Below are positions 3,040 through 47,919 of a DNA stretch of 64,000 nt, one piece after another. The notes beneath the pieces were generated by a model. That model did no database searches, was not told the origin of the DNA, and was given only the letters and a program-made list of their open reading frames with translations. Location: contig JAUQQN010000001.1 of assembly GCA_030549845.1 (NCBI GenBank), forward strand, positions 6,879-70,878, in the 5' to 3' direction. Within the stretch, counting starts at the first letter, position 1; each line of letters begins with the position of its first letter. The DNA comes from Patescibacteria group bacterium. GTDB lineage: Bacteria > Patescibacteriota > Minisyncoccia > UBA6257 > HR35. Both the position numbers and the translations under genes were made by a program.

Positions 3040-4965
3040 TTATTTGATAGTTTGAAGAATATCTAAAATCTGAGGATCCAAGCTTAAATTATAGGCAGTT
3101 TGAATTATTTGTTTAGCCAAATTTTTATTTCCTATATTTAAATACACTAAGCCAAGATTCAAATAATGAGTATGATTTGTTGGGTCTAATTCTATTGCTT
3201 TTTTATAATTATCAACCACTAAGGTTAACACTTGTTGATTATTTAAGCCAAGATTTTGGTATATGCTTGCTAAGTTAGAGTAATTTAAGGGCTCTTTAGG
3301 ATTTAAAAGAATAGCTGTATTTGCAGAATTTATAGCATTTGACAACGAATTCAAAATAAATTGTTGAGTTTGGGGTGATGTAGTGGCAAGATTTTGTATA
3401 CTTTGATTAAGTTTTTGCATCATTAAAAAGCTTAAATCTCTATAATACAAATCTGTAGTTGGGTCTATGGTTATTGAAATAACTAAATTATTAATAGCTA
3501 AGTCTAAATTATTATTTTGAAAACTTAGTATACCCTTTGCATAGTATACATTGGCTATATATTTCAAAGAAATAGAATATAAAAAGTAAATTATTGTTAC
3601 AATTAAAAGAACCCATATAATAAATGAGGTGATTTTTGTAAATTTATTTTTGTCAATTTCTAACTTTAATGAATCTTCTTTCGAAATTGATGTTATCATA
3701 CCTAAAAGGAAAAACATATAAATTCCATTTACTAAGCCTAATGGATAATATAAGGTGCTTAATGCTAGAATCAAACCTAAAGGGTAAAAGAGTTTTACTT
3801 CGATTAAGTTTATGTTTTGAATATTGAGCAACAAAAGGTAAAGCAGAAAGAAAAGAAAGGTAATAAAAGTTAAAAATCCTGTTTCACAAAGAAGTGTGAA
3901 AAGAAAATTGTAACCTTGCTCAAATCTCAATAAAGGTTGATATGGAAGTTGAGGTTTGTATTTAAGCCAGTTGTACAAAAAAGTATTTGGCCCAGTGCCT
4001 AATAAAAGATTTTTAATACTTTCATTAAGAGATCTAAAGGTTATCTGAAGAGTGACATTTAGGTTTGGCCTTGACTCTAAAATAGGTTGTGTTTTAAAAA
4101 TATTATTCAAAAATATGCTCAAATATGATGAGAAGAAGTATAAAATTATAAATATTGTCAAAATGGTTAGCCAATAAAAAGATTCTTTATCCAAAGGCTT
4201 AAAATGGAAGTGTTTATAGGCAAGTAAGGCAAGTATTATTAAGGAAAGAAGAAGCCATATTTGATTGAAATTTATAATTGTCATTAAAAACATACTAATC
4301 AACAAATTGATTATAGATAAAACAGTAATAAAATAAAACAGTTTTTTATTCTCTATTATTTCATGTAGAGATTTTAAATTAAGTAATATTAAAAGAGAGA
4401 AAAATAAACCTAACGAGATAAATATCACTAAATCAGAGATGCTTCCAATAAAGAAAATCCCAACGATGGTAAGTGGTTTTTGAAAAATAACAAAAAGAGT
4501 GAAAATGTTTGAAATAAAAAATATAACAGGAAAAATAAACAATAAAATTTTAATGTCTTCTTTTTGTAAAAGATAAATAGAAATCAGAAAGGTCAAAAAA
4601 TATAAAATATATGCAAGAAAAGAATGGGATGAAGATAATAAACCATACAAAGAATAATATTTAGCTTGGGATAAAAATGAGCTCGTTAGAGTAAGAATTA
4701 AAAATAAAAGAAAAATCAAAATAAATATCCATGCTTTTATTTTTATCTCTTTATTTATTAAGATGTTATTAAGTGTGGATAAAAATATTAATCCGAGAAG
4801 TATAGCCAGTAAAAATGTTTTATTAATTAGAACAAAATTGGAAGTATTAGTTAAAAAGAAAAATGGCAAAATAAAGATTGTTAATATTAATAAATATTTA
4901 GCAAGAAAATAAAAAACATTTTGGTAAGAAATTCCTTGGATTTTTAAAATTTTTAATGCTTTCAT
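3040..4965 (-). CDS. Polytopic membrane protein, O-antigen ligase/Wzy-like, with C-terminal TPR repeats
   Basis: >12 predicted TM segments, then TPR-like repeats (AYYAKGILSFQNNNLDLAINNL, AIELDPTNHTHYLNLGLVYLNIG). Confidence 0.55.
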   Translation of the reverse strand: MKALKILKIQGISYQNVFYFLAKYLLILTIFILPFFFLTNTSNFVLINKTFLLAILLGLIFLSTLNNILINKEIKIKAWIFILIFLLFLILTLTSSFLSQAKYYSLYGLLSSSHSFLAYILYFLTFLISIYLLQKEDIKILLFIFPVIFFISNIFTLFVIFQKPLTIVGIFFIGSISDLVIFISLGLFFSLLILLNLKSLHEIIENKKLFYFITVLSIINLLISMFLMTIINFNQIWLLLSLIILALLAYKHFHFKPLDKESFYWLTILTIFIILYFFSSYLSIFLNNIFKTQPILESRPNLNVTLQITFRSLNESIKNLLLGTGPNTFLYNWLKYKPQLPYQPLLRFEQGYNFLFTLLCETGFLTFITFLFFLLYLLLLNIQNINLIEVKLFYPLGLILALSTLYYPLGLVNGIYMFFLLGMITSISKEDSLKLEIDKNKFTKITSFIIWVLLIVTIIYFLYSISLKYIANVYYAKGILSFQNNNLDLAINNLVISITIDPTTDLYYRDLSFLMMQKLNQSIQNLATTSPQTQQFILNSLSNAINSANTAILLNPKEPLNYSNLASIYQNLGLNNQQVLTLVVDNYKKAIELDPTNHTHYLNLGLVYLNIGNKNLAKQIIQTAYNLSLDPQILDILQTIK

Positions 4966-8632: not shown

Positions 8633-9262
8633 ATGCTTTTTAGATCAAACAAAGAATTAGTAGATTATTTAATAAATACAGGGGTTTTAAGGACTGAAAA
8701 AATTATTCAAGCTTTCTTAAATATTGATAGGAAAAATTTTGTAAGAGAAGAAAACTTATTTGAAGCCTACGGTGATTATCCTCTTTATATTGGAGAAGGA
8801 CAAACAATTTCTCAACCATGGACCGTTGCTTTTATGTTGGAATTACTCAATCCACAAGAGGGACAAAAAATCTTAGATGTAGGATTTGGATCTGGTTGGA
8901 CTACTTCTTTGCTTGCCTATATAGTTGGTGAGAATGGAAAAGTTTATGGAATTGAGATATTGCCTTCTATATTTGAATTTGGAAAGAATAATATTTCAAA
9001 ATATAACTTTTTAGAAAAAGGCAGGGTTGAATTAAAATTAGGAGATGGATCCAAAGGTTGGAAGGAACATTCTCCTTTTGACAGAATTTTAGTGAGTGCT
9101 GCAGCAAAAGAAATTCCTCCAAAACTAATAGAGCAATTAGGAAATAATGGAATTTTAGTAATCCCTGATAGAAATGGAATATGGCAGATTGTTAAAAAAG
9201 ATAGCGAATTAGAAAAAAATTATTTTCCAGGCTTTGCTTTTGTGCCATTAGTAGAAGAGTAA
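8633..9262 (+). CDS. pcm: Protein-L-isoaspartate O-methyltransferase
   Basis: LDVGFGSGWTTSLLAYIVG SAM-binding motif and overall PCMT architecture (~209 aa). Confidence 0.8.
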   Translation: MLFRSNKELVDYLINTGVLRTEKIIQAFLNIDRKNFVREENLFEAYGDYPLYIGEGQTISQPWTVAFMLELLNPQEGQKILDVGFGSGWTTSLLAYIVGENGKVYGIEILPSIFEFGKNNISKYNFLEKGRVELKLGDGSKGWKEHSPFDRILVSAAAKEIPPKLIEQLGNNGILVIPDRNGIWQIVKKDSELEKNYFPGFAFVPLVEE

Positions 9263-9826: not shown

Positions 9827-10120
9827 ATGCTAACAAAAGAAGAATTAGAACATTTAGCAAAATTAGCAAAGATTGAATTTAAAGAAAAAGAGTTAGAAAA
9901 AATTTTGGAAGATATTGAAAAAATTTTTGGCTATGTAAATGAAATCCACAAATTAGATTTAGAAAATTATGAACCAATGATAGGAGGACCTATTCAAACA
10001 TTAGGATTAAGAGAAGATATTAAAGAGGTGTGCGATTTAGAAATTAAAGAACTGATCATCAATCAATTTCCAGAAAAAGAGAAAAATTTCTTAAAAGTTC
10101 CTAAAATAATTGAAAAATAA
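9827..10120 (+). CDS. gatC: Asp-tRNA(Asn)/Glu-tRNA(Gln) amidotransferase subunit C
   Basis: 97 aa, LTKEELEHLAKLAKIEF...E.E...DL pattern typical of GatC. Confidence 0.7.
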   Translation: MLTKEELEHLAKLAKIEFKEKELEKILEDIEKIFGYVNEIHKLDLENYEPMIGGPIQTLGLREDIKEVCDLEIKELIINQFPEKEKNFLKVPKIIEK

Positions 10121-10122
10121 AT

Positions 10123-11025
10123 TTATATTTTTAGATATTTTTGAATAGCAATACTACTAGAAATTATTGTAATCAAAAATAAAAAGAAAAACAAAAGAAG
10201 ATTTATTTGCCAAAAGTTTATAAAATAAAATAGCTCTGGGTTTAATGTAACTAAAATGTTTCTCCAAAAACCCCTTGTTTTTATTAATATTAAAATAAAA
10301 ACTCCTTGAGCTAATAAAAATCCTATTATTAACGAAATTAACTGTGAAATAAGGAATGGTAATCTAATAAAATAATTGGGAGCCCCTATTAATCTGAAAA
10401 TTTCTATTTCTTCTTTTTGTGAATAAATAGAAAGCAAAGTAGAATTAAAAATTATTAAAGCATTAAATCCTACTATTAATATTAAAAATATTGCTAAAGA
10501 GTATTTTAATTGAGTAGAAATTTTTATAAATCTGTTTATAACTTCTCTATTTTCTGAATAAGTAAGAAAATCTATAATTGCCCTATAAGGTGAATGCTCC
10601 AAATAACTTGCTACTTCTTCGTATACCTCTGGTTTATCTGCTTTAATAACTAAATAATCAACAAAAGGATTAATTTTTAATTCATTCAAGGCTTTTAAAA
10701 TGGTTGGGTTTGCTAAAAATTTTGTTTGAAATTCTTGCCATGCTGTTTCTTTAGTTATAAAATTTACCCTTCTTACTCCTTGAAAATTTTCTAAAATATT
10801 TTTGAGTTTATTAATATCTTCTCTACTTGTATTTTCTTTAAAATAGACAGTAAAATCTAATTTAGTTTTTACATATTCTATACCTTCATTCATTACATAA
10901 TATGAAATTACAACAATAAAAATAAACAAAGTTGTAAGAAAAGTTATAAAAATATTAACTAAGCTTATTAAGGTTTTATTTCGAAATAAACCAAAGCCTT
11001 CTCGAAGGATTCTTATTATAAGCAT
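10123..11025 (-). CDS. ftsX: Cell division permease FtsX
   Basis: FtsX-like 4-TM topology with periplasmic loop; immediately downstream of ftsE. Confidence 0.8.
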   Translation of the reverse strand: MLIIRILREGFGLFRNKTLISLVNIFITFLTTLFIFIVVISYYVMNEGIEYVKTKLDFTVYFKENTSREDINKLKNILENFQGVRRVNFITKETAWQEFQTKFLANPTILKALNELKINPFVDYLVIKADKPEVYEEVASYLEHSPYRAIIDFLTYSENREVINRFIKISTQLKYSLAIFLILIVGFNALIIFNSTLLSIYSQKEEIEIFRLIGAPNYFIRLPFLISQLISLIIGFLLAQGVFILILIKTRGFWRNILVTLNPELFYFINFWQINLLLFFFLFLITIISSSIAIQKYLKI

Positions 11026-35983: not shown

Positions 35984-36083
35984 TTTTTTATTATATTTTT
36001 AATGCCGCCCTCTTTGGATAAATTTTACAATAAAAACTTAAATTTTTATTTTAGTAAATATATCTTTAAAAATAAACTTAAAA

Positions 36084-36275
36084 TTATAAATTTTACATTT
36101 ACAATGCTATAGCATTTTAAATTTACAGCCCTTTCAGTAAGCATAGTTTTTTAAATGTGGGCTCATTTTTGAAGGTAGGCTAAGGATTTTAAATTTACAA
36201 TGCTATAGCATTTTAAATTTACAATTCTTTTTAAATAAGCATATTCTTCGAAGGTGGGTTAGAATTTTTCAGAAG
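36084..36275. repeat. Two ~96-bp tandem units, each with TTTAAATTTACA direct repeats flanking the palindrome AATGCTATAGCATT
   Basis: Palindromes at 36103-36116 and 36199-36212; unit tails share TAAGCATA...GAAGGT.GG.TA. Lies in a 560-bp spacer upstream of the 34934..35983 gene. Confidence 0.8.
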
Positions 36276-36543
36276 CTCCACTGCAGTGTTTTTTTTAATC
36301 TTCATTATAAATAATGGGATTTTCTGAAGTACTGTAATAAGCAATAAATGCTTTAAAGGATTCAAAGGAATTTCCATCATTGAATTTTCTTCGATTTTTG
36401 ATATTGTTTCTAGTTTAAATCCTAGATAGTAGATTATCTCATGACATATTTTATCCGTTATTGATTTTGGCGAGTCATCTTCTGATGGTTTATAAACTAT
36501 TACAGGATAAAAACCAAACTCTTTTTTTATACCTATAACTCCA

Positions 36544-37230
36544 TCAACATCGAGAAAGGGTGCTTCGCCTAGAAGTGTGGTAAGGGTGAGTTTTAAGGGA
36601 TAGAAGAAAATTATTTAAATAATAAGTAAATGAGGAAATTATTGAAAAATTGTGTTGGTTAAGAAGATCTTCTAATTCTTTTTTTGAATAATATTTTCTT
36701 GCTGATTCTAAATTTTTTATTATTTTAAGAAGTAGTTTAAGATAAAAAACATCAGGCGAGGGATCAACTAATAAAAATAAACCATTATCTTTTAAAACTC
36801 TTCCTATTTCTTTTAAAGCTGAGTCTGGATTGTAGAAATGATGGAAAGTATCCACACAGATAACAAAATTAAAACTTCCCTCTTCAAAGGGTAAATTTTC
36901 AACATTAGCTTCAATAATTTTTGTATTATTTAGATTAAAAGTTTTGTTTATTGCTTTTTCAACCATACCTTTTGAGAAATCAACACCGAAGAATTCTACT
37001 TCTTTAAATTCTTTTGCTAATTTGAAAATAACTTCAGCTGTTCCACATCCAACATCTAAAAATTTGCTTTTAGGTTTTAAGTATCCATTTGTTTGATTTT
37101 TGATTACTTCGATTACTTTTTTATAAAGTTTTTCAAAATAAATTAATCTAAATATCGAAGAATCATAAAACCTTGACCACAAATCAAACTGTTTTTTATT
37201 TAAATTTTCAAATTCTTCTTTTGTCATCAA
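36544..37230 (-). CDS. Class I SAM-dependent methyltransferase
   Basis: LDVGCGTAEVIF motif I, DTFHHF; odd GC-richer C-terminal tail ...KTHPYHTSRRSTLSRC suggests the 3' end may be altered. Confidence 0.7.
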   Translation of the reverse strand: MMTKEEFENLNKKQFDLWSRFYDSSIFRLIYFEKLYKKVIEVIKNQTNGYLKPKSKFLDVGCGTAEVIFKLAKEFKEVEFFGVDFSKGMVEKAINKTFNLNNTKIIEANVENLPFEEGSFNFVICVDTFHHFYNPDSALKEIGRVLKDNGLFLLVDPSPDVFYLKLLLKIIKNLESARKYYSKKELEDLLNQHNFSIISSFTYYLNNFLLSLKTHPYHTSRRSTLSRC

Positions 37231-37313
37231 AAGTTTTTTAAATTAAGAATTATATAACCTTAAAAAACTAAAAATAGTATTCAAGATAAAATTGAATTCA
37301 AAAATAATTATTT

Positions 37314-38015
37314 TTATATACTATTTCTTTTTTCAAAATAACTACAATAAGCACAATTTGGATTAGCAAGTGGAGGAGTTTTGCTATAATAAACCTCTTT
37401 TAAGTTTTCTAAAATTTCATCATATTTTTCATAATCTAAATTTTCTACCAAAACAACATCTCTTTCTTCAATTATTAAGGTTTCTCGCCTGTTTGAATCC
37501 CCTAATTCTTTAATGATATCAATTTTAACTACATAAAAAGCTCCATAATTTGCTACTTTTTCTTTATTTTTTAAAAGCAAGTAGCCATAAATTTCTAACT
37601 GTCTTTTATAACTCTCATAAATTTGAAAATTTTTACTTAATGTTGTTTTGAAATCAAAAGGTACAAGATTATTATGTTTATCAATTAAAAGTTCATCAAT
37701 CTTCCCCCAATAAATAAAATTATGTTCTGGATGATAAAACTCTATGCCTTTACCTCGCCAAGTTTTTAATTTTTCAAAATCATCAAAAAGATCTAATCCA
37801 AGTTCTTTTAATTTTTCTGGCTTAGTAAAGCTTTGGCGGTAATTGTCGAATTCACTTTTAATTAATGGATCGTATTTTTGGCCTATAAACCCACCTGTAA
37901 TTCCTTCAGGTCTTTTAATATTATGTTTAATTTCTAACCAAAAACACCTTGGACAATCAATAAAAAGTTCAATTTTAGCTCTGGATATTTTGATAGTACT
38001 GTTTGTATTTTTCAT
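37314..38015 (-). CDS. PD-(D/E)XK nuclease, Cas4/RecB-like with 4-Cys cluster
   Basis: N-terminal CPRC and C-terminal CAYC cysteine pairs bracketing a nuclease core (..D..K pattern FDFKTT...QLEIYGYLL); architecture like DUF83/Cas4-family exonucleases. No cas genes nearby. Confidence 0.55.
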   Translation of the reverse strand: MKNTNSTIKISRAKIELFIDCPRCFWLEIKHNIKRPEGITGGFIGQKYDPLIKSEFDNYRQSFTKPEKLKELGLDLFDDFEKLKTWRGKGIEFYHPEHNFIYWGKIDELLIDKHNNLVPFDFKTTLSKNFQIYESYKRQLEIYGYLLLKNKEKVANYGAFYVVKIDIIKELGDSNRRETLIIEERDVVLVENLDYEKYDEILENLKEVYYSKTPPLANPNCAYCSYFEKRNSI

Positions 38016-38329
38016 GGAAAAACATTTTAAATTTCGACATATTCCAATTTTTTAATTATAGAACAATAATTTAAAAAATCTAATAATTTTTATCATTAAT
38101 CATTCAGCCAACAAAAAAGGCCTTAAAATTCCTTAGTCATTGTTCAAATTTATTTTCTCAATTTCTAGAGAAAATAAGAAAGGTAAATTTTTAAAATTTC
38201 TAAAGTAAATTTTTAAATTTTATAAAATACCTTTTTAATTTCGGCCTTTTTGAATAAATTTCGCAATAAAATTTTTATTTTTCAATTTTGGTTAGTATAT
38301 TTTTAGATACCATGTTTAAGCTGTTTTAA

Positions 38330-39142
38330 ATTTATTATTATTTTTGATCTTTAATACATCCAAAATCTTTTTTTCTAAGTTTTTATTCCAATTTTCTATA
38401 TCGGTTAATTTATTAATAAAATCAACTAATTTGTAATATTCTATAACAAAACAATTATCTAACCCCTGAACATTTTCTATTTTTCCATTTACAAAAACAA
38501 CAATTGGGATTGTTTTTATATTGATGTTATTATCCTTTAATAACTCATTTAAAAAAATTCTCTTTCTAAAATTTGGCGAATCGGATTTTTATAATAAAGT
38601 TTATATCTCATTTTACCTTTTTCTTTGCGATATAATTCTTGACCACTAACCCTAAATAATCCGTGGTAATTTTTAATCTCTAATAAAATTATTCCTTTAG
38701 GCCCTATTAGTATTCCATCAATATCACCTGTCTCTATATTGGATAATTCATAATTTTTAATATAATTGGATAATTCATAATTTTTAATATAAACATATTT
38801 ATCACTCAAATGTCTTTTTAAAAATTTTATAACCCTATTTTCTCCTTCTTCGCCTTTTATCAAAGAGTCTAATTTATCAATTAAACTATCTAAATACTCA
38901 AAACCTCCTAAAATAGAAAATAATAAAAATACAATTAAAAAGAAAATTGCTATACTGGAAAAGAATTTTTTGACAGGCTCTAAGAATTTAAGAAATTCTG
39001 GTAATGGTACTAATGAAAAAACGCCTGTAAAAACAAAAATAAGCAAAAATACTAATAAAAGTAAAAGAATAATTGTTGGTTTATTGCCAATTTTTTCAAG
39101 TTCTTTGGCGAGGTATGATTTTTGATATTCTATTATCCTCAT
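38330..39142 (-). pseudogene. NERD-domain protein with N-terminal TM segments, interrupted by a frameshift at an A7 tract (38551-38557)
   Basis: Track ORF 38549..39142 ends ...QILEREFF*. The adjacent frame continues LNELLKDNNINIKTIPIVVFVNGKIENVQG... (canonical NERD continuation) to a stop near 38330. Removing one A from the homopolymer fuses the two parts. Confidence 0.6.
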
Positions 39143-39252
39143 TTATAAAAATCAAATATAAACATATTTTTATCTCATAAATTGACTTTAAAAAAATTTT
39201 TATTTTGATACATTGATTATCGTAGTTTTTATCTCGATTAATTTATTAAACA

Positions 39253-42144
39253 TCACAACTTGCCTTTTGTAAAATTTACAATGTTTTCTAAGATCTTATC
39301 AAAATTTTCAAACCAATAATCTTTATAGCCGGAAGATCTAACTCTATCTTCATCTTCTGTGTATAGAAAACAAAAAATATAACAATTTAGATTTTTGTAT
39401 TGGAATTTTTTAGGCTTATTTTCTTCTTCGAAAATTTCTTTATATCCTAAAACTTTATCTTCAAAATTCCTATAACTTGTACTCTTAGGATCAACAAAAA
39501 CTATATAATAATCATTCCCTCTCTTAAGCCAAAAAATAAAGTCTGGTTTGAAGTTTTCAAACTGGGATTTTTCATAATTATAGTAAGGAATATAGACATC
39601 ATCTAAATTTTCATCAATTTTGCTAAATAACCACCAATCAAAATTATTGAATTTACTTTCTTTACTAGCAATATATTTTTCTAACTCTTCTATAAATTTA
39701 ATCTCGCTTTTAGTTTTTATTATATGTTTTATATATTCCACTCTCTCATTTCTTTGCAAAATCAAAGGAAGATAATAATGTTGAGGAATGTATTTTAAAT
39801 CTAATTCTCTGCCATATACTGAAGTTTTTTTATTTTCAAATACATTCTTTATTAAATTTTCAAAATTTTTAAAGTCTGCTTCTTCTAATTCAACAATAAT
39901 TTTTTTATAATGCTTTATCTCATCCTTTAATTCTTCAATATTTTCTAATTCTCTTAATTCTTTATTCCAGAAATTAAAAATATTATTCAAAACTACTACG
40001 GGATTTTTGACAATTGACTGATCTACAAATTTGTAAAACTGATTTTCTCTTTCAAAAGAATTTTTAACAAATTTCAAAAGTTTAGGCTCAACATTGTAAT
40101 TAACTAACAAAATTCTTTCATCTTTAATAAATTCGTAAAATTCTCTAACCAAACTCAATTCATCTCGTGATAATTTAAACCTTGATTTTACTTCACTTTC
40201 TTCAAATAACTTTTTATCTGCAAGCTTGTATTTAGGAATTAAGAGAATTTTATCTTTTATAATTTCTTCATTTTTAAATAGACGAAGTTCTTTTTTAGCT
40301 TTTGTTTCTTTTTTAAACTCTTCTGTTTCTTTTAAGATCGTCTCCAATGCTGATTTGTTAGTGCCAAATATAAATAAAGTTTCTATAGAAGGCACAAAAT
40401 CTTTAATTTTTTGAAAAACATCCTTAAACTCTGGATCTAAATCTATATATATTCCTCTTTTCCTTTGATTTTTAACAGGTTCAATTCTTACCCCTCTCCC
40501 TATTGACTGCAAAACAAATTTCCTAGCATTTTTCTGCGTGCCAATATTTATAAACATTATTATATTCGGCCTATTGGAATCCCATCCTTCATAAAATACT
40601 CTTGAACCAAGTAAGATGTTTACTGAAGATTCTTCATCATTTACCCTTTCAAAAAATCCTTCATTTTCGAATGTATGATTTACTTCAAAATTCAATAACT
40701 CATTTTTAAGCCAATTTGGCATTTGTCCGGTTTTACTAAGACAAAAATGAGAATCTGATGTTTTTAATTTAAAAGCAACTTCACTATTATTTGAAGGATT
40801 AAAAGATATTTCTATTTCTCCAGGTTTTTCCGAATTAAACACATATCTTAAAATATCTCGGTAATTTATTGATTGTAAAAGTTGGTCATCAAATTCAATT
40901 TCCTCGTTTGGCAGTATATATTCCTTTTTATTATTTAATTCTTCTATAATTTCATTTTTAGCCTCTTCAATAATTTTTTCTTCTACTTTTCCTTTCCCTA
41001 TCTTCTCTAATTCTTTAAATATTTTCTTTAAATCAGCTAATTCATTATCAACAGAGTTTACTAATACTAAAATTAATGGCTTATGATATAAATTGGTTTT
41101 GATTTTTCTAATCTCTTCAAGATTCTTTTTAATATATGTCAAAAGAATTAATGCTTTAAGAATAATTTTTTGTTTAGTTAAATCATCAAAATCTTCTTTA
41201 TTTCTAAAAGCATCAATATCTCTTTCGAAAATATAAATTTTCTTACCGAATCCTTTTTCAATAAAACTTGAAAGATTAAATTCATAAACGCAAGTTACTA
41301 AATCTCTAATATCATCAAAAGTCGCTGAAAAATTAAAAAGAAAACCATTTTGTGAAAGAATAGAATAGATATGTTGTCTTTTTGATTCATCTTTGTCGCC
41401 TTTATGAGCTTCGTCCAAAATTAAATACCATTTACCTTCATTATAATAATTTCTAAAATCTATAATTTTTTCTTTCTCTTCATCGCTAAACAAATCTGAT
41501 CTATAATAAAAAACAATATTTTCTTTAAAAAGTTTTAAAGAAGATTTTATTTTCTCATAATCCTTAAAATTACAAAGTTCAATTCTATTTTGTATATTAA
41601 ACTTATTATATTCATCTATGTGCTCTTGAAATTGCTTTATTAAATCTTCCCTATGAGTCAGAAATAAAATGTCATAATCAGGTATTTCTCTTCTTTGAAT
41701 CAAATTTTTGAGAATTTCTATAAGTTTAATAATCACCAAAGTCTTTCCGCTCCCAGTTGCCATCCAAAAACTCATCCTATTAATGAAATGCTTAAAACTT
41801 ATCTCGTTATTTTCTAACTCGTAATAATCAAAAATAAATTTATGCTTTCTTTCTTCCTTGTATTTATGAGAAACTTCTTGAGGATTTAAGCCCCAATCTA
41901 AATATTTTTCATACAAAATTTTCTTTCTTCGCTCATTAATTTCTAAATTTTCATTTTCAAAATAGTCATACTCTTTATCATAGTAGAACCATAAAATTTT
42001 TAAAGCATTCTCTAGAGCTTCTTTTTGAAAATCATAAAGTTTTTTATTCTCAGAGAAATTATCTAAATCAAAATTCTGCCAATTAAAAGATAATTGATTT
42101 TTATCAATATTTTCAGCTATTTTTTGAAGAATTAACTTTGCCAT
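39253..42144 (-). CDS. res: Type III restriction enzyme Res-like subunit (SF2 helicase plus C-terminal PD-(D/E)XK endonuclease)
   Basis: Motif I MATGSGKT, motif II ILDEAHKG, motif III NFSATF, motif VI QSIGRGVR; C-terminal KPDFIFWLK...YIVFVDPK nuclease motif. Confidence 0.75.
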   Translation of the reverse strand: MAKLILQKIAENIDKNQLSFNWQNFDLDNFSENKKLYDFQKEALENALKILWFYYDKEYDYFENENLEINERRKKILYEKYLDWGLNPQEVSHKYKEERKHKFIFDYYELENNEISFKHFINRMSFWMATGSGKTLVIIKLIEILKNLIQRREIPDYDILFLTHREDLIKQFQEHIDEYNKFNIQNRIELCNFKDYEKIKSSLKLFKENIVFYYRSDLFSDEEKEKIIDFRNYYNEGKWYLILDEAHKGDKDESKRQHIYSILSQNGFLFNFSATFDDIRDLVTCVYEFNLSSFIEKGFGKKIYIFERDIDAFRNKEDFDDLTKQKIILKALILLTYIKKNLEEIRKIKTNLYHKPLILVLVNSVDNELADLKKIFKELEKIGKGKVEEKIIEEAKNEIIEELNNKKEYILPNEEIEFDDQLLQSINYRDILRYVFNSEKPGEIEISFNPSNNSEVAFKLKTSDSHFCLSKTGQMPNWLKNELLNFEVNHTFENEGFFERVNDEESSVNILLGSRVFYEGWDSNRPNIIMFINIGTQKNARKFVLQSIGRGVRIEPVKNQRKRGIYIDLDPEFKDVFQKIKDFVPSIETLFIFGTNKSALETILKETEEFKKETKAKKELRLFKNEEIIKDKILLIPKYKLADKKLFEESEVKSRFKLSRDELSLVREFYEFIKDERILLVNYNVEPKLLKFVKNSFERENQFYKFVDQSIVKNPVVVLNNIFNFWNKELRELENIEELKDEIKHYKKIIVELEEADFKNFENLIKNVFENKKTSVYGRELDLKYIPQHYYLPLILQRNERVEYIKHIIKTKSEIKFIEELEKYIASKESKFNNFDWWLFSKIDENLDDVYIPYYNYEKSQFENFKPDFIFWLKRGNDYYIVFVDPKSTSYRNFEDKVLGYKEIFEEENKPKKFQYKNLNCYIFCFLYTEDEDRVRSSGYKDYWFENFDKILENIVNFTKGKL

Positions 42145-42179
42145 TTATTAAATTTTAAAATTAGGATTTATTGTTGCTG

Positions 42180-42956
42180 TCATATAATTAATTTTTCTAA
42201 AATATTCCTATCTAATCTCTTTAAATATTCATTAACATAAAAATAGTCTGGTTCTTGTTTAATCGCTCTTGTTATTATTCTAAAAGCTTTATCTAAGCCT
42301 ATATCTTCTTTCAAAACTTGATTGACATTGAAAAGAATTAAACCTATTCCAAATCTTAAACATAAAGATTCTAATCTACTTAAATCAACCTGAGATATTG
42401 TCTCTGGTAATACTAAATAAACTTTATGACTAAATAATTTATAAGAACAAGCTTGACCAAAAGCAATAATTGGCTGATTAGTATCTATTTTAATTTCAGC
42501 ACTAATTATTTCTGGTAATGGTTCAATTATTGATGGCTTCGAGATTTTATAAATTCCTAAAACATCTGGAGTACCCCATCTATCTCTAAACACACTACCT
42601 CCTAATGGTATAGTTTTTGTACATCCTTCTAATTCTTGTACTAAATAATCAGCAAATTTTTGATAGATTGTCTCTTCTCTAATTTTTGTTTCTTCTTCAA
42701 ATATTTTTTCTTCCTTAAGATTTTCATAAAATTTCCTTAAAATATAGAGCCCTCTTTCTGGTTTTATTACATCTTTGATTTTTTTATCTAAATTCCATAT
42801 TTCCCATTGAATAAGTTTTAATTTAATTTCTGGATATTCTTCGTAAATTTTATTTACTAATTTAGAATACCTTATTCCTTGAGGTGAATTTTCTAAAATC
42901 TCCAAAGCTTTTTCTCTTATTGCTTCCTGTTTTTGTTTATGGGTTAGTTTTTTCAT
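42180..42956 (-). CDS. Hypothetical protein with possible PD-(D/E)XK-like core, embedded between mod and res
   Basis: GTPDVLGIYK ... SAEIKID (PD...E.K pattern); N-terminal helical/wHTH-like region. Overlaps the upstream gene by 20 nt, so co-transcribed. Confidence 0.4.
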   Translation of the reverse strand: MKKLTHKQKQEAIREKALEILENSPQGIRYSKLVNKIYEEYPEIKLKLIQWEIWNLDKKIKDVIKPERGLYILRKFYENLKEEKIFEEETKIREETIYQKFADYLVQELEGCTKTIPLGGSVFRDRWGTPDVLGIYKISKPSIIEPLPEIISAEIKIDTNQPIIAFGQACSYKLFSHKVYLVLPETISQVDLSRLESLCLRFGIGLILFNVNQVLKEDIGLDKAFRIITRAIKQEPDYFYVNEYLKRLDRNILEKLII

Positions 42957-43626
42957 TTTTATAATTTAAATACTTCAAAAGATATATAAAATCCTCTTTA
43001 ACACCAACAATTTCACTAATACTCATAGGGGTAATATTTTTTTTCATAACAATATGTAAGGATAATGTATGATTACTAGGTTTAATTTTCATTGTTTTTA
43101 TTTGAAAATATTTTAATATTTCATTAAACATTTTTTGAATATAATCAATTATCTCTTTTAATTCATCTATGATGTCATTAAATTTAATAACTGATAATAT
43201 ATCTACCGCAGATAATTTTTTATTGATATCTATATGGGCTACAACCTTATTTACAGTTTTTAAAATCTCATTAATTTCATTGTTTTTATATTTATCAATT
43301 TCTGATTCAATTTCTTTTAATTTCTGCACATCTTCCAATAAATTTTTGTGTTGGAATTCTTTAGAGAAATAGATTAGGGGAAAATATAAAGAATATACAT
43401 CATCTCTTTCTCTTTTATCGAAAATTTTTCTTATTTCTAATAAAGTTATTAAAAGAGTGTTGATAACAAACAAAATAAAAAAATTTCTAAATTTTTTTAT
43501 TAGAATATGATTCCTATATTCTTCTAGTACATTTAAATTTGTTTTAACAAAAGCAATTTCTTTTGCCAAAATATCTTTCCACTCTTCCAGTTTTTTAATT
43601 GCATTTTTATTTAAAATTTCTTCCAT
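42937..43626 (-). CDS. Hypothetical protein with one TM helix and coiled-coil regions, embedded between mod and res
   Basis: FRNFFILFVINTLLITLLEI hydrophobic segment; starts 4 nt after the mod stop. Confidence 0.4.
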   Translation of the reverse strand: MEEILNKNAIKKLEEWKDILAKEIAFVKTNLNVLEEYRNHILIKKFRNFFILFVINTLLITLLEIRKIFDKRERDDVYSLYFPLIYFSKEFQHKNLLEDVQKLKEIESEIDKYKNNEINEILKTVNKVVAHIDINKKLSAVDILSVIKFNDIIDELKEIIDYIQKMFNEILKYFQIKTMKIKPSNHTLSLHIVMKKNITPMSISEIVGVKEDFIYLLKYLNYKNEKTNP

Positions 43627-43630
43627 CTTT

Positions 43631-46186
43631 TCACCACCAAATTAATTTTTTAATTTCTGGCAAATGTTTTTCTAATTGATTTAAACTTACTTTTTCTCCA
43701 TCTTCAAATTCAACTTCATTTTCTGAAATTTTTTTAAGCCACTTGCCTTTTAAACAAGAAAGTGTTTCAGCAATATCTACATTTGAATAAATTTTACTAA
43801 AATCAATTTTTATCTTGTTATTTTCATAATTAATTTCTAAGGCTTCTAACATTTTAGGGTCAGCCATAAATATATAATTAAAATCTTCTTTAAATAATTT
43901 AGGTGATTCTTTTTCAGTCAAATATTTTGCTTTATCCAAAATATCTGGAAATTGCTCAAGTTCATAATATTTGAAAAATCCACCTGCTTTATCTTCGTTA
44001 TATTTTTCCTTAACATCCTTTTCTTTTGATATTCCAAATTTATCATAAGCTAAAACCTTTTTCATTCTTGGTAAAACTACTGTATAAAAATGCTCTCCCA
44101 TCTCTACACCAATCCATTTTCTTTTTAGTTTATGTGCTACTGCTGTTGTTGTGCCACTTCCTAAAAAGAAATCCATAACTAAATCGTCTTCGTTGGAAGT
44201 AGATTCTATGACACGTTTGAGAAGGATTTCAGAGTTTTCGGTAGGGAAACCAGTTGATTTGGATATAACGTAAGTGTAGCCTAAAATATCTGTCCAGTCA
44301 TTATTTACAGGAACCTCTCGTCTTAAATAGAAAGCATCAAACTCCCTAGAGCTACATTTTTGACAACAGAGAATCTTTAGATTAGGATCAGTATTTTGAT
44401 ATTCCCATCCACAATTCTTACACACGATTTTTATATTTCCTTTACTTATTTCAATTTCTATTCTCTCTTGAGAAAATTGCCAATGAGTTCCTTTTGGTGC
44501 TTTAATAATCATTCCCCAAAATACCCGTGTTGGTTCTCCTCGTTCCCCAGGGAAAAACATTATTGTCCATTCTAGCTTTTCGTCAGGTTTAGGTCTTAAA
44601 GGTATAGTTATGGTTGCTTTTTGTTTATTCACGGAAAAAAATATTAAGCTTTCTGTATCATTTTCAAATTTATTTCTCTCTTTACTCTCAGTTCTCTTTC
44701 CTTTTCTTACTATTATCTCATTCCTAAAATTCTCCTTTCCAAAAATCTCATCCATCAAAGGTCTTACAATCCAATTCCCATTGTAATCACATCTAACAAA
44801 AATACTTCCTGTATCTTTTAACAACTCTCTTGCAAGCCTTAGTCTATTTTCAAGCATTGTAGCCCAGGTGGAGTCTTTGTATTTTACAGAATAGAAATAA
44901 TCTGCTTCTTGTTCTTTATTAAATGGTGGATCGATATAAATAGTTTGCACTTTTTCTTTAAATTTTGGTAAGATTGTATTTAATGCTTGATAATTTTCGC
45001 TCTTTATTAACCAACCATCTAAATTTTCATCTAAATTATCAAAAAGGCTTAAAATTTCAAGTTCTAAATCTTTAAAGTATTTTGTATCTATAGGTAAAAA
45101 TTGATATTTTTTGTTTAAATTTTTGCCACTTAAATCTTTTTGAATGATTTTATTTTTGTCAAAATCTTCATCAATTATATTTAATTCTTTCCATTCTTTT
45201 ATTTGTTCACTAAAATTTTTATGATTTATTATCTTTTCAATAATTTGGATTCCCTTTTCATGATTTTGTTTTACTAATCTATCTAAAGTGATAACATAAT
45301 TCGAATTTAAAACAAATCTTGGTTTATTCCATATTTTTACAAGTTCATCCTCAAATTTAGAGACAAAATCAATAATAAATTCTGCGCATTCCCTTAACTT
45401 ATTTATCTGATCGATTCTTTCTGGAGTATAATCTTGGTTAGTTGAGAAAAATTTATTATAGATAAATAGTTTTAATTGTTCGGTTAAAAAAGCTTTTGCA
45501 TTTTTATGAATAAAATAATCTATTTCTGATTGTTGTTCAAATTTTTTGAATGCTTTTTCTAAAATTTCTTCTGTTAACTTGATATTCTTGTTTTTAAATT
45601 TATTTTTTAATTTTTTGAGAATTTCATCTATTTTTGTTGTTTTCCCTTTTTCTGAATAATAAACTTTAAAAACAAATCTTTCTTCTGATGTTTGACTTTC
45701 ATCTAATTCATAAATAAGCTCTCTTTTCTCATTTGCTTTTTTAGCTTCAAGAGTTGAAACATCAAAGTAAAATCTAAATTCTTTATTATTTTCTTGTAAG
45801 ACAACTTCTAATGATTTATATATTCTATCGGTTTTAAGATAATAAAGATCACGGGTTTTCCAAAATAAAATTATGTCTTCTTTATCTGTATAAACCCTGT
45901 CATAAATTTGATGATAGTATGGAGTATTAACAAAATAGATTGATCCTGATTCTGAAAAATATCGAGAAAAGAAAGTATAAATTTTTTCAAAAAGTTCTTC
46001 CTTAAAATTTGGGTATTTCTTTAAAATTTCTTTTATTTTTTGTTCGAGCTTAGGTTTAAAAACTTCATCGTAATATTTCTTTTTAATTTTCATCAAATTT
46101 ATATAGCCACCAGTGCCCTCAATCTCAGCCCCAACAAACATATTAGTTAAAAGATTGTAAAATTTTTGCTCATAATCTTGTCTCAT
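43631..46186 (-). CDS. mod: Large beta-class N6-adenine/N4-cytosine DNA methyltransferase (Type III Mod-like) with Zn-ribbon insertion
   Basis: Motif IV IYIDPPFN precedes motif I VMDFFLGSGTTTAVA (beta-class order); CKNC...CCQKC zinc ribbon between them; 851 aa. Confidence 0.75.
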   Translation of the reverse strand: MRQDYEQKFYNLLTNMFVGAEIEGTGGYINLMKIKKKYYDEVFKPKLEQKIKEILKKYPNFKEELFEKIYTFFSRYFSESGSIYFVNTPYYHQIYDRVYTDKEDIILFWKTRDLYYLKTDRIYKSLEVVLQENNKEFRFYFDVSTLEAKKANEKRELIYELDESQTSEERFVFKVYYSEKGKTTKIDEILKKLKNKFKNKNIKLTEEILEKAFKKFEQQSEIDYFIHKNAKAFLTEQLKLFIYNKFFSTNQDYTPERIDQINKLRECAEFIIDFVSKFEDELVKIWNKPRFVLNSNYVITLDRLVKQNHEKGIQIIEKIINHKNFSEQIKEWKELNIIDEDFDKNKIIQKDLSGKNLNKKYQFLPIDTKYFKDLELEILSLFDNLDENLDGWLIKSENYQALNTILPKFKEKVQTIYIDPPFNKEQEADYFYSVKYKDSTWATMLENRLRLARELLKDTGSIFVRCDYNGNWIVRPLMDEIFGKENFRNEIIVRKGKRTESKERNKFENDTESLIFFSVNKQKATITIPLRPKPDEKLEWTIMFFPGERGEPTRVFWGMIIKAPKGTHWQFSQERIEIEISKGNIKIVCKNCGWEYQNTDPNLKILCCQKCSSREFDAFYLRREVPVNNDWTDILGYTYVISKSTGFPTENSEILLKRVIESTSNEDDLVMDFFLGSGTTTAVAHKLKRKWIGVEMGEHFYTVVLPRMKKVLAYDKFGISKEKDVKEKYNEDKAGGFFKYYELEQFPDILDKAKYLTEKESPKLFKEDFNYIFMADPKMLEALEINYENNKIKIDFSKIYSNVDIAETLSCLKGKWLKKISENEVEFEDGEKVSLNQLEKHLPEIKKLIWW

Positions 46187-46215
46187 TAATTTAATTTTAT
46201 CACTTTTTAGGAAGG
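46173..46215. repeat. Mod promoter / 5' end 'box' (copy 2, the functional one)
   Basis: ATAATCTTGTCTCATTAATTTAATTTTATCACTTTTTAGGAAGG; includes the mod ATG (CAT at 46184-46186). Confidence 0.85.
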
Positions 46216-46220
46216 ATCAG

Positions 46221-46244
46221 TTTTTCGTAATCTGATTACGAAAA
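46221..46244. repeat. P1 palindrome copy K (42 bp upstream of the mod start)
   Basis: TTTTTCGTAATCTGATTACGAAAA. Confidence 0.85.
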
Positions 46245-46283
46245 GGTGTAAGTTATACAACTTATACCAAAATAAATAAAAAT

Positions 46284-46760
46284 TTACTTAAACCTGATTG
46301 GTAGTTCGAAATAGTATTGATTTTCTAAAAGGCCTGACGGGTTAGAATTTCTAAAAATTAATGTTCCTCGATGAGAAAAATGGTTAATGTCAGTATTTGG
46401 AAAGGATGGGTTTTTAAATTCTAATTTTCCTTCAAAAGTAACAAAATCTTCTGTCATCCAATTATCTTTTGCTTCAACATAGCTTTCAGTAATAATCTTT
46501 CCGTCCCAATCAACTAAAGTAACTGGGAAGGTTGCTTCAAAAAACCAATTACCTTTTGCTTTACCTTTAATAATAAGTGGAGAGTCAATAACATCATTTG
46601 CTTTTGGAGATTCGATTATTATTGTTTTTGATATTTCTTTTTCTGTTTTTATTTCTTTTTGTGGTTTAAAATAAAGTTTTTCAAGATAAGAACGAGACAA
46701 AAATAATAAAATTAACAGAGTTACTGATGTTATTATAAAAATTATTATTTTCTTAAGCAT
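46284..46760 (-). CDS. Secreted hypothetical protein
   Basis: Signal/TM N-terminus, no recognisable domain. Confidence 0.45.
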   Translation of the reverse strand: MLKKIIIFIITSVTLLILLFLSRSYLEKLYFKPQKEIKTEKEISKTIIIESPKANDVIDSPLIIKGKAKGNWFFEATFPVTLVDWDGKIITESYVEAKDNWMTEDFVTFEGKLEFKNPSFPNTDINHFSHRGTLIFRNSNPSGLLENQYYFELPIRFK

Positions 46761-47919
46761 TGATTTTTAGTGATTTTAGAAGAATTAAAAGAGAAATTGA
46801 CATTAAGATTATACCGATTGTGAACGAATAAGTAAAGCCAAATTTTGTCCAGATATAACCAGCAAGTGAACCACCAAGAAGTTGGCCTATGCCAAAAAGA
46901 GCATTTAAAGTGCCTTGGGAGGTTGCTAAATATTCAGAAGAAACATTCTTGCCTATATAAACCATTTTTATCCCATCTATTGAAGCTAAACTAAATGCTA
47001 AAACAATAATTCCTAAAATCACAAGTAAATTAATATTTATTAGAAATAAGAAGTAAGAACTAATTGCAGTTAAAAATCCAATAATTAAAACTTTATCTTC
47101 GCCTAATTTATCAGCGGTTTTTCCTAGAAAAAAAGCAAAAATTACAAAAGATAAATTAAAAATAAAATAAAACAATGGGAAAAATTTTAATGAAGGATCA
47201 ATTGTTTGAGTCCTTAAAAGAACTAAAGCTAAAGGAAAATAACCTAAAGAAAAAATAAAAAATGAAAGAAGATAAAGCTTTATTTTGGATGAAAAAATTT
47301 TGAAATCAAAAATAAATTTTTTGTTTTTATTATGAGGTTCTTTTTTGTCTTCAACAAAAATAAAAGTTAAAATTGCTAAAAAACCAATAAGTGTTCCGAA
47401 CAAAAATAAACTTTTATAATTCAAATTTAAAAAATAGTTTAAGAGAAAAAAGCCTAAAAGAGGGCCTAAAATAGCGCCAATAGTATCAAAAGCTCTATGA
47501 AAATTAAATGATTTATTAAGCTCTTCTTTGTCTGAAGAAAGATATAGTAAAGCATCGCGAGGTGCATCTCTTAATCCCTTCCCTACTCTATCAATAATTC
47601 TTAAGGTAAATACTTGCCAAATGCTATTTACAAAATAAAGCATAAACCTTGTAAGATTAGAAATTGTATAGCCTAAAACAGCAAATATTTTTCTTTTATT
47701 GTAATAGTCAGAAAGTCTTCCCGAAAAAATTTTAAAGATATTGACTAAAGCATCAGCAGTTCCTTCTAAAAAACCAACAAACCATAAGGGTGCATTTAAA
47801 CTTTTAACTAAAAAAGCAGGCATAACAGAATAAATCATCTCACTTGAAAAATCATTAAATAAACTCACAAGACTTAAAAAGAAAACATTCTTATTTACTC
47901 CTAAGATTTTATTTTTCAT
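46753..47919 (-). CDS. MFS-family transporter
   Basis: 12 TM helices, motif GRLSDYYNKRK in loop 2-3 (MFS signature G-R-[LI]-[SA]-D-R). Confidence 0.7.
   Translation of the reverse strand: MKNKILGVNKNVFFLSLVSLFNDFSSEMIYSVMPAFLVKSLNAPLWFVGFLEGTADALVNIFKIFSGRLSDYYNKRKIFAVLGYTISNLTRFMLYFVNSIWQVFTLRIIDRVGKGLRDAPRDALLYLSSDKEELNKSFNFHRAFDTIGAILGPLLGFFLLNYFLNLNYKSLFLFGTLIGFLAILTFIFVEDKKEPHNKNKKFIFDFKIFSSKIKLYLLSFFIFSLGYFPLALVLLRTQTIDPSLKFFPLFYFIFNLSFVIFAFFLGKTADKLGEDKVLIIGFLTAISSYFLFLININLLVILGIIVLAFSLASIDGIKMVYIGKNVSSEYLATSQGTLNALFGIGQLLGGSLAGYIWTKFGFTYSFTIGIILMSISLLILLKSLKINA

Follow-up and report, generated by a model that had tools for sequence, protein, structure and literature searches.

A Type III restriction-modification operon of a Patescibacteria group bacterium with two defence-type genes at its mod-res junction, a probable slot for exchangeable cargo

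A stretch of 64,000 nucleotides from a Patescibacteria group bacterium (assembly GCA_030549845.1, contig JAUQQN010000001.1, positions 6,879 to 70,878 of the forward strand; subsequently designated the window) carries an operon related to Type III systems of restriction-modification (R-M). Its methyltransferase gene mod and its helicase-nuclease gene res lie on a common strand and in the canonical order, yet they are not adjacent, as two open reading frames, ORF2 and ORF3 (1.45 kb), intervene. The four reading frames are co-directional on the minus strand and follow each other with a gap of 4 nt, an overlap of 20 nt and a gap of 35 nt. A first-pass annotation, made by a model from the letters and translated reading frames, had described this spacing correctly and had recognized a Type III-like mod-res operon amid defence-rich surroundings, a claim that holds. 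The operon comprises the following features.

43631..46186, minus strand: mod, encoding an 851-aa beta-class Type III DNA methyltransferase
44248..44695, minus strand: hypervariable target-recognition region (TRD) in mod, about residues 498-646, including a Cys4 Zn ribbon
43627..43641, minus strand: junction of the mod stop and the ORF2 start, with the conserved ...LIWW* end of Mod (TGGTGGTGA) and a Shine-Dalgarno-like GGTGA 4 nt before the ORF2 ATG
42937..43626, minus strand: ORF2, 229 aa, HEPN_AbiU2-like, an orphan; variable cargo gene
42180..42956, minus strand: ORF3, 258 aa, a predicted nuclease with a winged helix and a PD-(D/E)XK domain, from a large family without a name; cargo gene seen repeatedly
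39253..42144, minus strand: res, encoding a 963-aa superfamily 2 (SF2) helicase with a C-terminal PD..DxK endonuclease motif

The identity of the two outer genes is clear. Mod matches PF01555 (N6_N4_Mtase) at 1e-40 and, over its full length, the PADLOC model MTase_III PDLC03638 at 3e-293. In the translation its motifs follow the beta-class order, with DPPF (motif IV, about residue 420) preceding the TRD and FLGSGTT (motif I, about residue 668), which together with the two profile matches bears out the earlier call of a beta-class Mod with a Zn-ribbon insertion; a Cys4 ribbon is placed between both motifs. Res matches ResIII at 2.8e-18, DEAD and SWI2_SNF2 in Pfam as well as, weakly and partially, PADLOC REase_III at 9e-18. 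Its translation contains Walker A (MATGSGKT), a DEAH box (LDEAHKG), motif VI (QSIGRGVRI) and a C-terminal FKPD...VFVDPK; the annotation as a Res-like SF2 helicase/PD-(D/E)XK protein was thus likewise confirmed. The Res family has more than 3270 homologues at E<=1e-30, among them the protein annotated as ‘type III restriction protein res subunit’ in Thermocrinis albus DSM 14484, to which the Res of the window is 50% identical. Mods with 50-67% identity are found upstream of Res homologues in three of the compared loci (L001, L002 and L091; compared loci are numbered in this way throughout). The Mod/Res pair is of a known kind, and Mod matches an existing PADLOC model.

Comparison with close relatives revealed which parts of the operon are exchanged. 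Locus L005, a contig of a metagenome-assembled genome (MAG), shares 97% and 92% identity with the window at the two ends of mod, and 95% in ORF3, res and the neighboring NERD gene. Similarity is absent from two segments, namely 44695-44248, i.e. the TRD, where nucleotide similarity is zero, and 43626-42937, which is exactly ORF2. Precisely in place of ORF2, L005 carries an unrelated 288-aa gene with a weak, sub-threshold match to DUF5677. In L088, encoding a Res 98% and an ORF3 95% identical to those of the window, a 356-aa Fic_N/Fic gene separates ORF3 from res, two genes that are only 35 nt apart in the window. Therefore, the same core operon carries different extra genes in close relatives. 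The MAG containing L005 (GCA_038741235.1) is labelled Candidatus Aenigmatarchaeota, i.e. archaeal. The closest relatives of ORF3, Mod and Res belong to Patescibacteria/Parcubacteria, and L005 has bacterial-type MacB/FtsX and RND adaptor genes; judging from these genes, the MAG may be taxonomically mislabelled, or the region may stem from a transfer event.

Within Mod, identity dropped to 0-40% in the TRD in all pairs compared, and the GC content of this region is 33% versus 27% for mod as a whole. Such an exchangeable TRD would imply that close relatives differ in methylation specificity, because it is exchanged in strains whose remaining sequence is 92-97% identical. The idea that a gene at the mod-res junction co-varies with the TRD as a specificity partner was rejected: L008 and L009 share a 154/155-aa gene at this position (75% identity), although their TRDs differ.

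A second, small sample was anchored on Res and found independently of ORF3, through a metagenome scan with Res (4 loci) and eight single look-ups; 11 loci were informative. mod and res are adjacent in three of them, at a distance of 1-6 nt, eight carry cargo and two have ORF3. The contigs of L088 and L097 end before mod, leaving only the genes directly upstream of res visible. The following genes occupy the mod-res junction.

L092 (Thermocrinis albus DSM 14484): none
L098: none
L099: none
L088: ORF3 and Fic
L093: 155-aa protein and ORF3
L089: DUF3800
L094: DUF3800-like
L091: GIY-YIG, a 149-aa ORF (no Pfam match), a 128-aa ORF (partial match to the Proteasome family) and RhuM-Fic
L095: 178-aa protein, AAA_15/AAA_21 ATPase and 154-aa protein
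L096: KAP NTPase
L097: AAA_23/21 and SLFN_AlbA_2/HATPase_c_4 (Schlafen-like)

Several cargo families are used repeatedly, in varying sets: RhuM-Fic is present in L013 and L091 (63% identity), a DUF3800-like gene in L025 and L094 (48%) and an ATPase in L001 and L095 (43%). L001 additionally contains, at 8788-8901, a duplicate of the Res N-terminus (38 aa, 58% identical to residues 3-40 of the window Res). The duplicate sits between ORF3 and an inserted cassette of an AAA_15/21 ATPase and a 156-aa gene, upstream of the full res, and resembles a scar left by recombination when the cassette was inserted. In the window, a repeat search detected no direct or inverted repeats marking a mobile cassette around ORF2 or ORF3. 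The 154/155-aa proteins form a slot family without Pfam match (L001 7547-8011, L009 9535-10002, L093 5766-6233), of which the L009 and L093 copies are identical. Further slot genes without Pfam match encode a 367-aa protein in L002 (6883-7986) and the 178-aa protein in L095 (4973-5509). The bare mod-res pair of L098 is flanked by TIR genes, ThsB_TIR upstream and TIR/TIR_2 downstream (3343-3894, 10011-10496).

The 3’ end of mod offers a possible explanation for how such cargo is expressed. Thirteen other loci were compared, and in 10 of them the ATG of the next gene lies 2-5 nt past the conserved Mod 3’ end. This gene is res in L092 and L098, i.e. two of the three bare loci; elsewhere it is the first gene of the cargo. 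The GGTGA in TGGTGGTGA may represent a shared ribosome-binding element; if so, cargo placed there would automatically be coupled to mod. The first cargo gene would inherit this element, since its start 4 nt past the mod stop corresponds to the start site of res in bare relatives. The cargo would then be read from the mod transcript; we infer this co-transcription, as we infer enzymatic activities and any cross-talk of the cargo with Mod/Res. Counts in a promoter/terminator scan of 38000-47000 equalled the shuffled expectation, and the scan therefore says nothing on the operon boundaries.

ORF2 had been annotated as a single-pass membrane protein with coiled coils. This label is not backed, because its hydrophobic stretch (about residues 49-63; Kyte-Doolittle maximum 1.82 at residues 50-68) falls within a match to Pfam PF18734 HEPN_AbiU2, which scores 4.3e-8 and 33.3 bits (cut-off 26.8) and aligns residues 11-165 with profile positions 2-170 of 193. 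A membrane helix may still be present, but by its sequence an Abi-type HEPN protein is the better reading of ORF2. The suggestion in the first-pass annotation of an R-M system coupled to an abortive-infection module is accordingly a fair one. A regex search found no Rx4-6H motif in ORF2, the sole candidate being N126-KVVA-H131, and a word-seeded search among 5.8 billion proteins returned no homologue but ORF2 itself. The PADLOC, NCBIfam and PHROG libraries contain no match for ORF2 or ORF3. A single-sequence AlphaFold model of ORF2 is all-helical, its predicted local distance difference test score (pLDDT) of 44.5 being too poor for a fold search. The GC content of the gene is 20.6%, below that of the neighboring genes (25-27%). 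ORF2 would be a fast-evolving HEPN (AbiU2-like) protein and, if catalytically active, an abortive-infection RNase.

ORF3, in contrast to the orphan ORF2, belongs to a large family with 1647 homologues in 711 clusters at 50% identity. Its members, all called hypothetical, come from 350 species-level genomes that span many phyla of Bacteria and Archaea. No Pfam, NCBIfam, PADLOC or PHROG model covers the C-terminal domain, and ORF3 and 65 family members matched no Pfam nuclease family, Mrr_cat included, at E<=0.5. Alignments revealed (near-)invariant residues E110/E111, WGTPD131, E154-I-K156, Q168xxxY172 and K178, and the C-terminal domain is predicted by modeling to adopt the restriction-endonuclease fold with a conserved D...(D/E)xK. 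The N-terminal 75 residues match winged helices (cullin WHB, the Z-alpha domain of ZBP1, RPA32 and PadR), and the family profile matches the Rok winged-helix structure at 2.5e-5; a PDB profile search with ORF3 returned the Rok winged helix only and no nuclease. A winged helix of the DNA-binding type is thus fused to the nuclease domain. The earlier proposal of a nuclease core stood, with D131, E154 and K156 as putative catalytic residues. At the N-terminus, members of the family swap in or append Mrr_N, HARE-HTH, HTH_3 or further winged helices of the Rok type. The combination of a winged helix and a PD-(D/E)XK fold with an intact catalytic set would make ORF3 Mrr-like in architecture, without being a member of Mrr_cat by sequence.

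The genomic contexts of this family were surveyed in the 80 best species-level loci, based on crude gene calling. Methyltransferases and helicases were detected with iterated hidden Markov models and multi-seed phmmer; tblastn with the Mod and Res of the window gave few hits. In 61 of the 80 loci (76%), neither a beta-class methyltransferase nor a Res-type helicase is present within 4.5 kb. Both are likewise absent from 26 of the 36 loci whose sequence extends 3 kb or more to each side. ORF3 is located between Mod and Res in seven loci (L008, L009, L015, L018, L020, L025 and L083; list corrected by hand for an overlap artefact in L009). In L083 the order is res-ORF3-mod and the Res is of a different type with a RE_endonuc domain. 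Six loci have a co-directional methyltransferase, in some cases of a short SPPY type, as the sole R-M gene found nearby, two more have one on the opposite strand and four have a Res-type helicase alone. In aggregate Pfam scans, N6_N4_Mtase and ResIII were the only recurrent R-M families among the flanking genes, the other neighbors being housekeeping genes, e.g. for alanyl-, leucyl- and aspartyl-tRNA synthetases (AlaRS, LeuRS, AspRS), CPSase, an AIR-synthase-family (PurL-like) protein, TruD and ThiI. ORF3 is strongly enriched near R-M genes in comparison to a random gene, but is nevertheless mostly autonomous.

In a Pirellulales MAG (L045 5146-6926) and a Desulfobacca MAG (L049 110-1851), ORF3 homologues lie 24-27 nt downstream of short beta-class methyltransferases of the SPPY type. 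These methyltransferases are 70% identical to each other and the gene pair looks Type II-style. A role of ORF3 as the Type II restriction endonuclease partner of such methyltransferases was considered, but not adopted, because most ORF3 copies have no methyltransferase.

The neighbors of the operon named by the first-pass annotation, i.e. a Cas4-like gene, a frameshifted NERD gene and a class-I methyltransferase dependent on S-adenosylmethionine (SAM), are all present.

38331..39142, minus strand: NERD-domain gene, frameshifted (PF08378 at 1.5e-15), a neighbor outside the operon proper
37314-38015: Cas4-like PDDEXK_1 gene (Pfam scan)
36544-37230: class-I SAM methyltransferase (Pfam scan)

The intact 263-aa NERD orthologue of L005 aligns with the window in frame -1 over residues 1-188 and in frame -3 over residues 185-262, which puts the frameshift at about 38560. 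A perfect in-frame tandem duplication of 27 nt (38738-38791), encoding YIKNYELSN twice, is a further feature of the window copy. Judged by its reading frame, the NERD gene of the window is a pseudogene. A 2.2-kb segment (36068-38232) with the Cas4-like gene and the SAM methyltransferase represents an indel beside the R-M operon, because it is missing from the otherwise collinear L005. The SAM methyltransferase matches PADLOC ‘mad2’ at 9e-19 and the NERD protein matches NCBIfam MADS6 at 3.6e-10, far below the cut-off; both matches reflect a resemblance to the MADS system at the domain level only.

The explanation we favor, and consider probable, sees in the locus a Type III R-M operon whose mod-res junction serves as a cargo slot, here filled by two independent defence-type genes. 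It builds on the observed gene content, folds, conservation and cargo variability and on the exact boundaries at which genes have been replaced. ORF3 would most likely cut DNA alone, in the manner of Mrr-like or winged-helix Type IV enzymes, rather than act as a subunit of the Mod2Res complex, since its family mostly lives alone in genomes. By analogy with EcoprrI-PrrC, the operon could provide layered defence, with R-M acting first and the extra nucleases as additional or back-up layers. The first-pass annotation had instead suggested that Mod, ORF2 (as a membrane or effector component), ORF3 and Res act as one new defence system of four genes. The tight coupling of the four reading frames on one strand and the hydrophobic helix of ORF2, with the Kyte-Doolittle maximum mentioned above, would agree with this. 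Yet ORF2, for which the word-seeded search found no homologues, is exchanged for an unrelated gene in L005, where the remaining three genes are 92-97% identical. Moreover, relatives with bare mod-res pairs or with various other cargo exist, the four-gene set is repeated in no other locus compared, PADLOC models match neither ORF2 nor ORF3, and ORF3 homologues are mostly found outside Mod/Res contexts (61/80 loci), an outcome that the annotation itself had named as refuting. The idea of an integrated and undescribed four-gene architecture fails in view of these data, and we consider it very improbable.

The main rival is a three-component variant of Type III R-M, in which only the ORF2 position is variable and ORF3 is a dedicated accessory nuclease or DNA-binding subunit acting together with Mod and Res, e.g. 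as a second cleavage module or a sensor. Indeed, mod and res enclose ORF3 in the window, L005, L001/L008, L009/L093, L002, L018 and L020, and the same holds with other Res families in L015 and L025 and, in the reverse order, in L083. ORF3 is tightly packed, overlapping by 20 nt in the window and by 4 nt with res in L002, it is unusually well conserved, and a conserved third gene in hundreds of Type III loci provides a precedent (PMC8259958). We nonetheless regard this variant as unlikely: only 2 of the 11 Res-anchored loci have ORF3 while 3 are bare, 61 of the 80 ORF3 loci have neither mod nor res, insertions separate ORF3 from res (Fic in L088, the ATPase cassette in L001), and Res retains a PD..DxK motif of its own. 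We consider it quite improbable that ORF3 represents a selfish mobile nuclease gene, similar to free-standing homing endonucleases or addiction modules, which spreads by insertion between conserved genes and for which R-M operons are merely frequent landing sites. Its identity of 45-63% across bacterial and archaeal phyla would, on this account, imply rampant horizontal transfer; solitary copies adjoin conserved housekeeping genes (AlaRS, LeuRS, AspRS, CPSase, AIR-synthase-family), and a small GIY-YIG gene occupies the slot of one relative (L091). On the other hand, no repeats or recognizable ends surround ORF3 in the window, no common target site is evident because the neighbors differ in almost every locus, and the Mrr_N and HARE-HTH swaps suggest restriction-type enzymes. 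Some observations sit less comfortably with a mere cargo slot. Identities of 45-63% across phyla and domains exceed those of typical restriction nucleases. As many as 19 of the 80 ORF3 loci have a beta-class methyltransferase or Res-type helicase within 4.5 kb, which is co-directional in 17, and the detection seeds represented these two families only, so that other R-M types may have been missed among the remainder. The position of ORF3 between mod and res recurs with at least three different Res families and with either gene order (L015/L025, L018/L020, L083), as might equally be expected of a dedicated accessory. A nuclease that depends on modification and a methyltransferase can share an operon only if their specificities do not overlap. 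Finally, the activity of ORF2 is uncertain because it lacks the HEPN catalytic arginine and homologues.

A bolder proposal, which we put forward only tentatively, takes the ORF3 family, a winged helix joined to a PD-(D/E)XK domain of the QxxxY type, as a new and widespread defence nuclease with a specific functional tie to Type III R-M, and the mod-res junction as a dedicated, translationally pre-wired site of cassette exchange. Such a tie would explain why ORF3 is placed between mod and res in either gene order and with three Res families. If true, ORF3 could be a second cleavage module or a guard DNase triggered by inhibition of Mod2Res. Returning to the cargo-slot explanation, genes wedged into R-M operons should not be assigned as subunits without a comparative check, as comparison of strains separates the R-M core from shuffled cargo. 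This Type III family is large (more than 3000 Res homologues), and its mod-res junction is a possible hotspot to mine for defence genes, like Type I operons and defence islands. Its unannotated cargo genes, encoding the 154/155-aa, 178-aa, 288-aa and 367-aa proteins, are candidate defence genes, and a new class of restriction enzymes or a tool enzyme might reasonably be sought in the ORF3 family, which is sizeable and highly conserved. In the literature searched, we found no description of the mod-res junction as a recurrent pre-wired cargo slot, nor of the ORF3 nuclease family.

In comparison to canonical Type III systems (EcoP15I/EcoP1I type and the two-gene homologue of T. albus), the arrangement of a beta-class Mod with central TRD upstream of an SF2/PD-(D/E)XK Res is alike, whereas two extra genes (1.45 kb) split mod and res in the window and Res matches PADLOC REase_III weakly. 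Swapping of TRD alleles resembles the known shuffling of mod alleles in H. influenzae (PMC1557822). Type III loci with a third gene have also been reported: an SF2 ATPase without nuclease motif, encoded 5’ of mod and constant in more than 500 genomes (Murray et al. 2021, PMC8259958). In both cases the extra genes are closely linked to mod and res, but those of the window family are variable and lie between them, while the reported ones are constant and lie upstream of mod.

Mrr-like and winged-helix Type IV restriction enzymes (Helbrecht et al. 2024, PMC11037411) share with ORF3 the fusion of a winged helix to a PD-(D/E)XK domain. These enzymes are mostly stand-alone, 87% of them lacking an adjacent methyltransferase (PMC11037411); of the ORF3 loci, 76% have no methyltransferase or Res nearby. 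Like Mrr-like enzymes, some ORF3 family members carry Mrr_N or HARE-HTH instead of a Rok-like winged helix. The domain order differs, being winged helix-nuclease in ORF3 and PD-(D/E)XK-winged helix in the FcyTI/Psp4BI class (PMC11037411). In contrast to Mrr-like Type IV enzymes, ORF3 has no Mrr_cat match, and about a quarter of the ORF3 loci, including the window copy, adjoin a beta-class methyltransferase or Res.

ORF2 resembles Lactococcus AbiU2, an abortive infection protein, in its Pfam match over residues 11-165, but is very divergent and lacks the catalytic arginine. Genes for HEPN (including AbiU2), Fic/Doc and RhuM proteins embedded in R-M operons were described in 2013, and layered defence by R-M and such embedded genes was proposed at that time on the model of EcoprrI-PrrC (Anantharaman et al., PMC3710099). 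The window shares with the EcoprrI-PrrC/RloC operons an AbiU2-type HEPN gene in an R-M operon, and the slot of its relatives contains Fic, RhuM-Doc and ABC-type ATPase genes. The EcoprrI-PrrC/RloC paradigm concerns Type I systems (hsdMSR) and fusions of ABC-ATPase and HEPN, whereas the window has a Type III system with a small orphan HEPN protein devoid of the Rx4-6H arginine, and its slot is located precisely at the mod-res junction.

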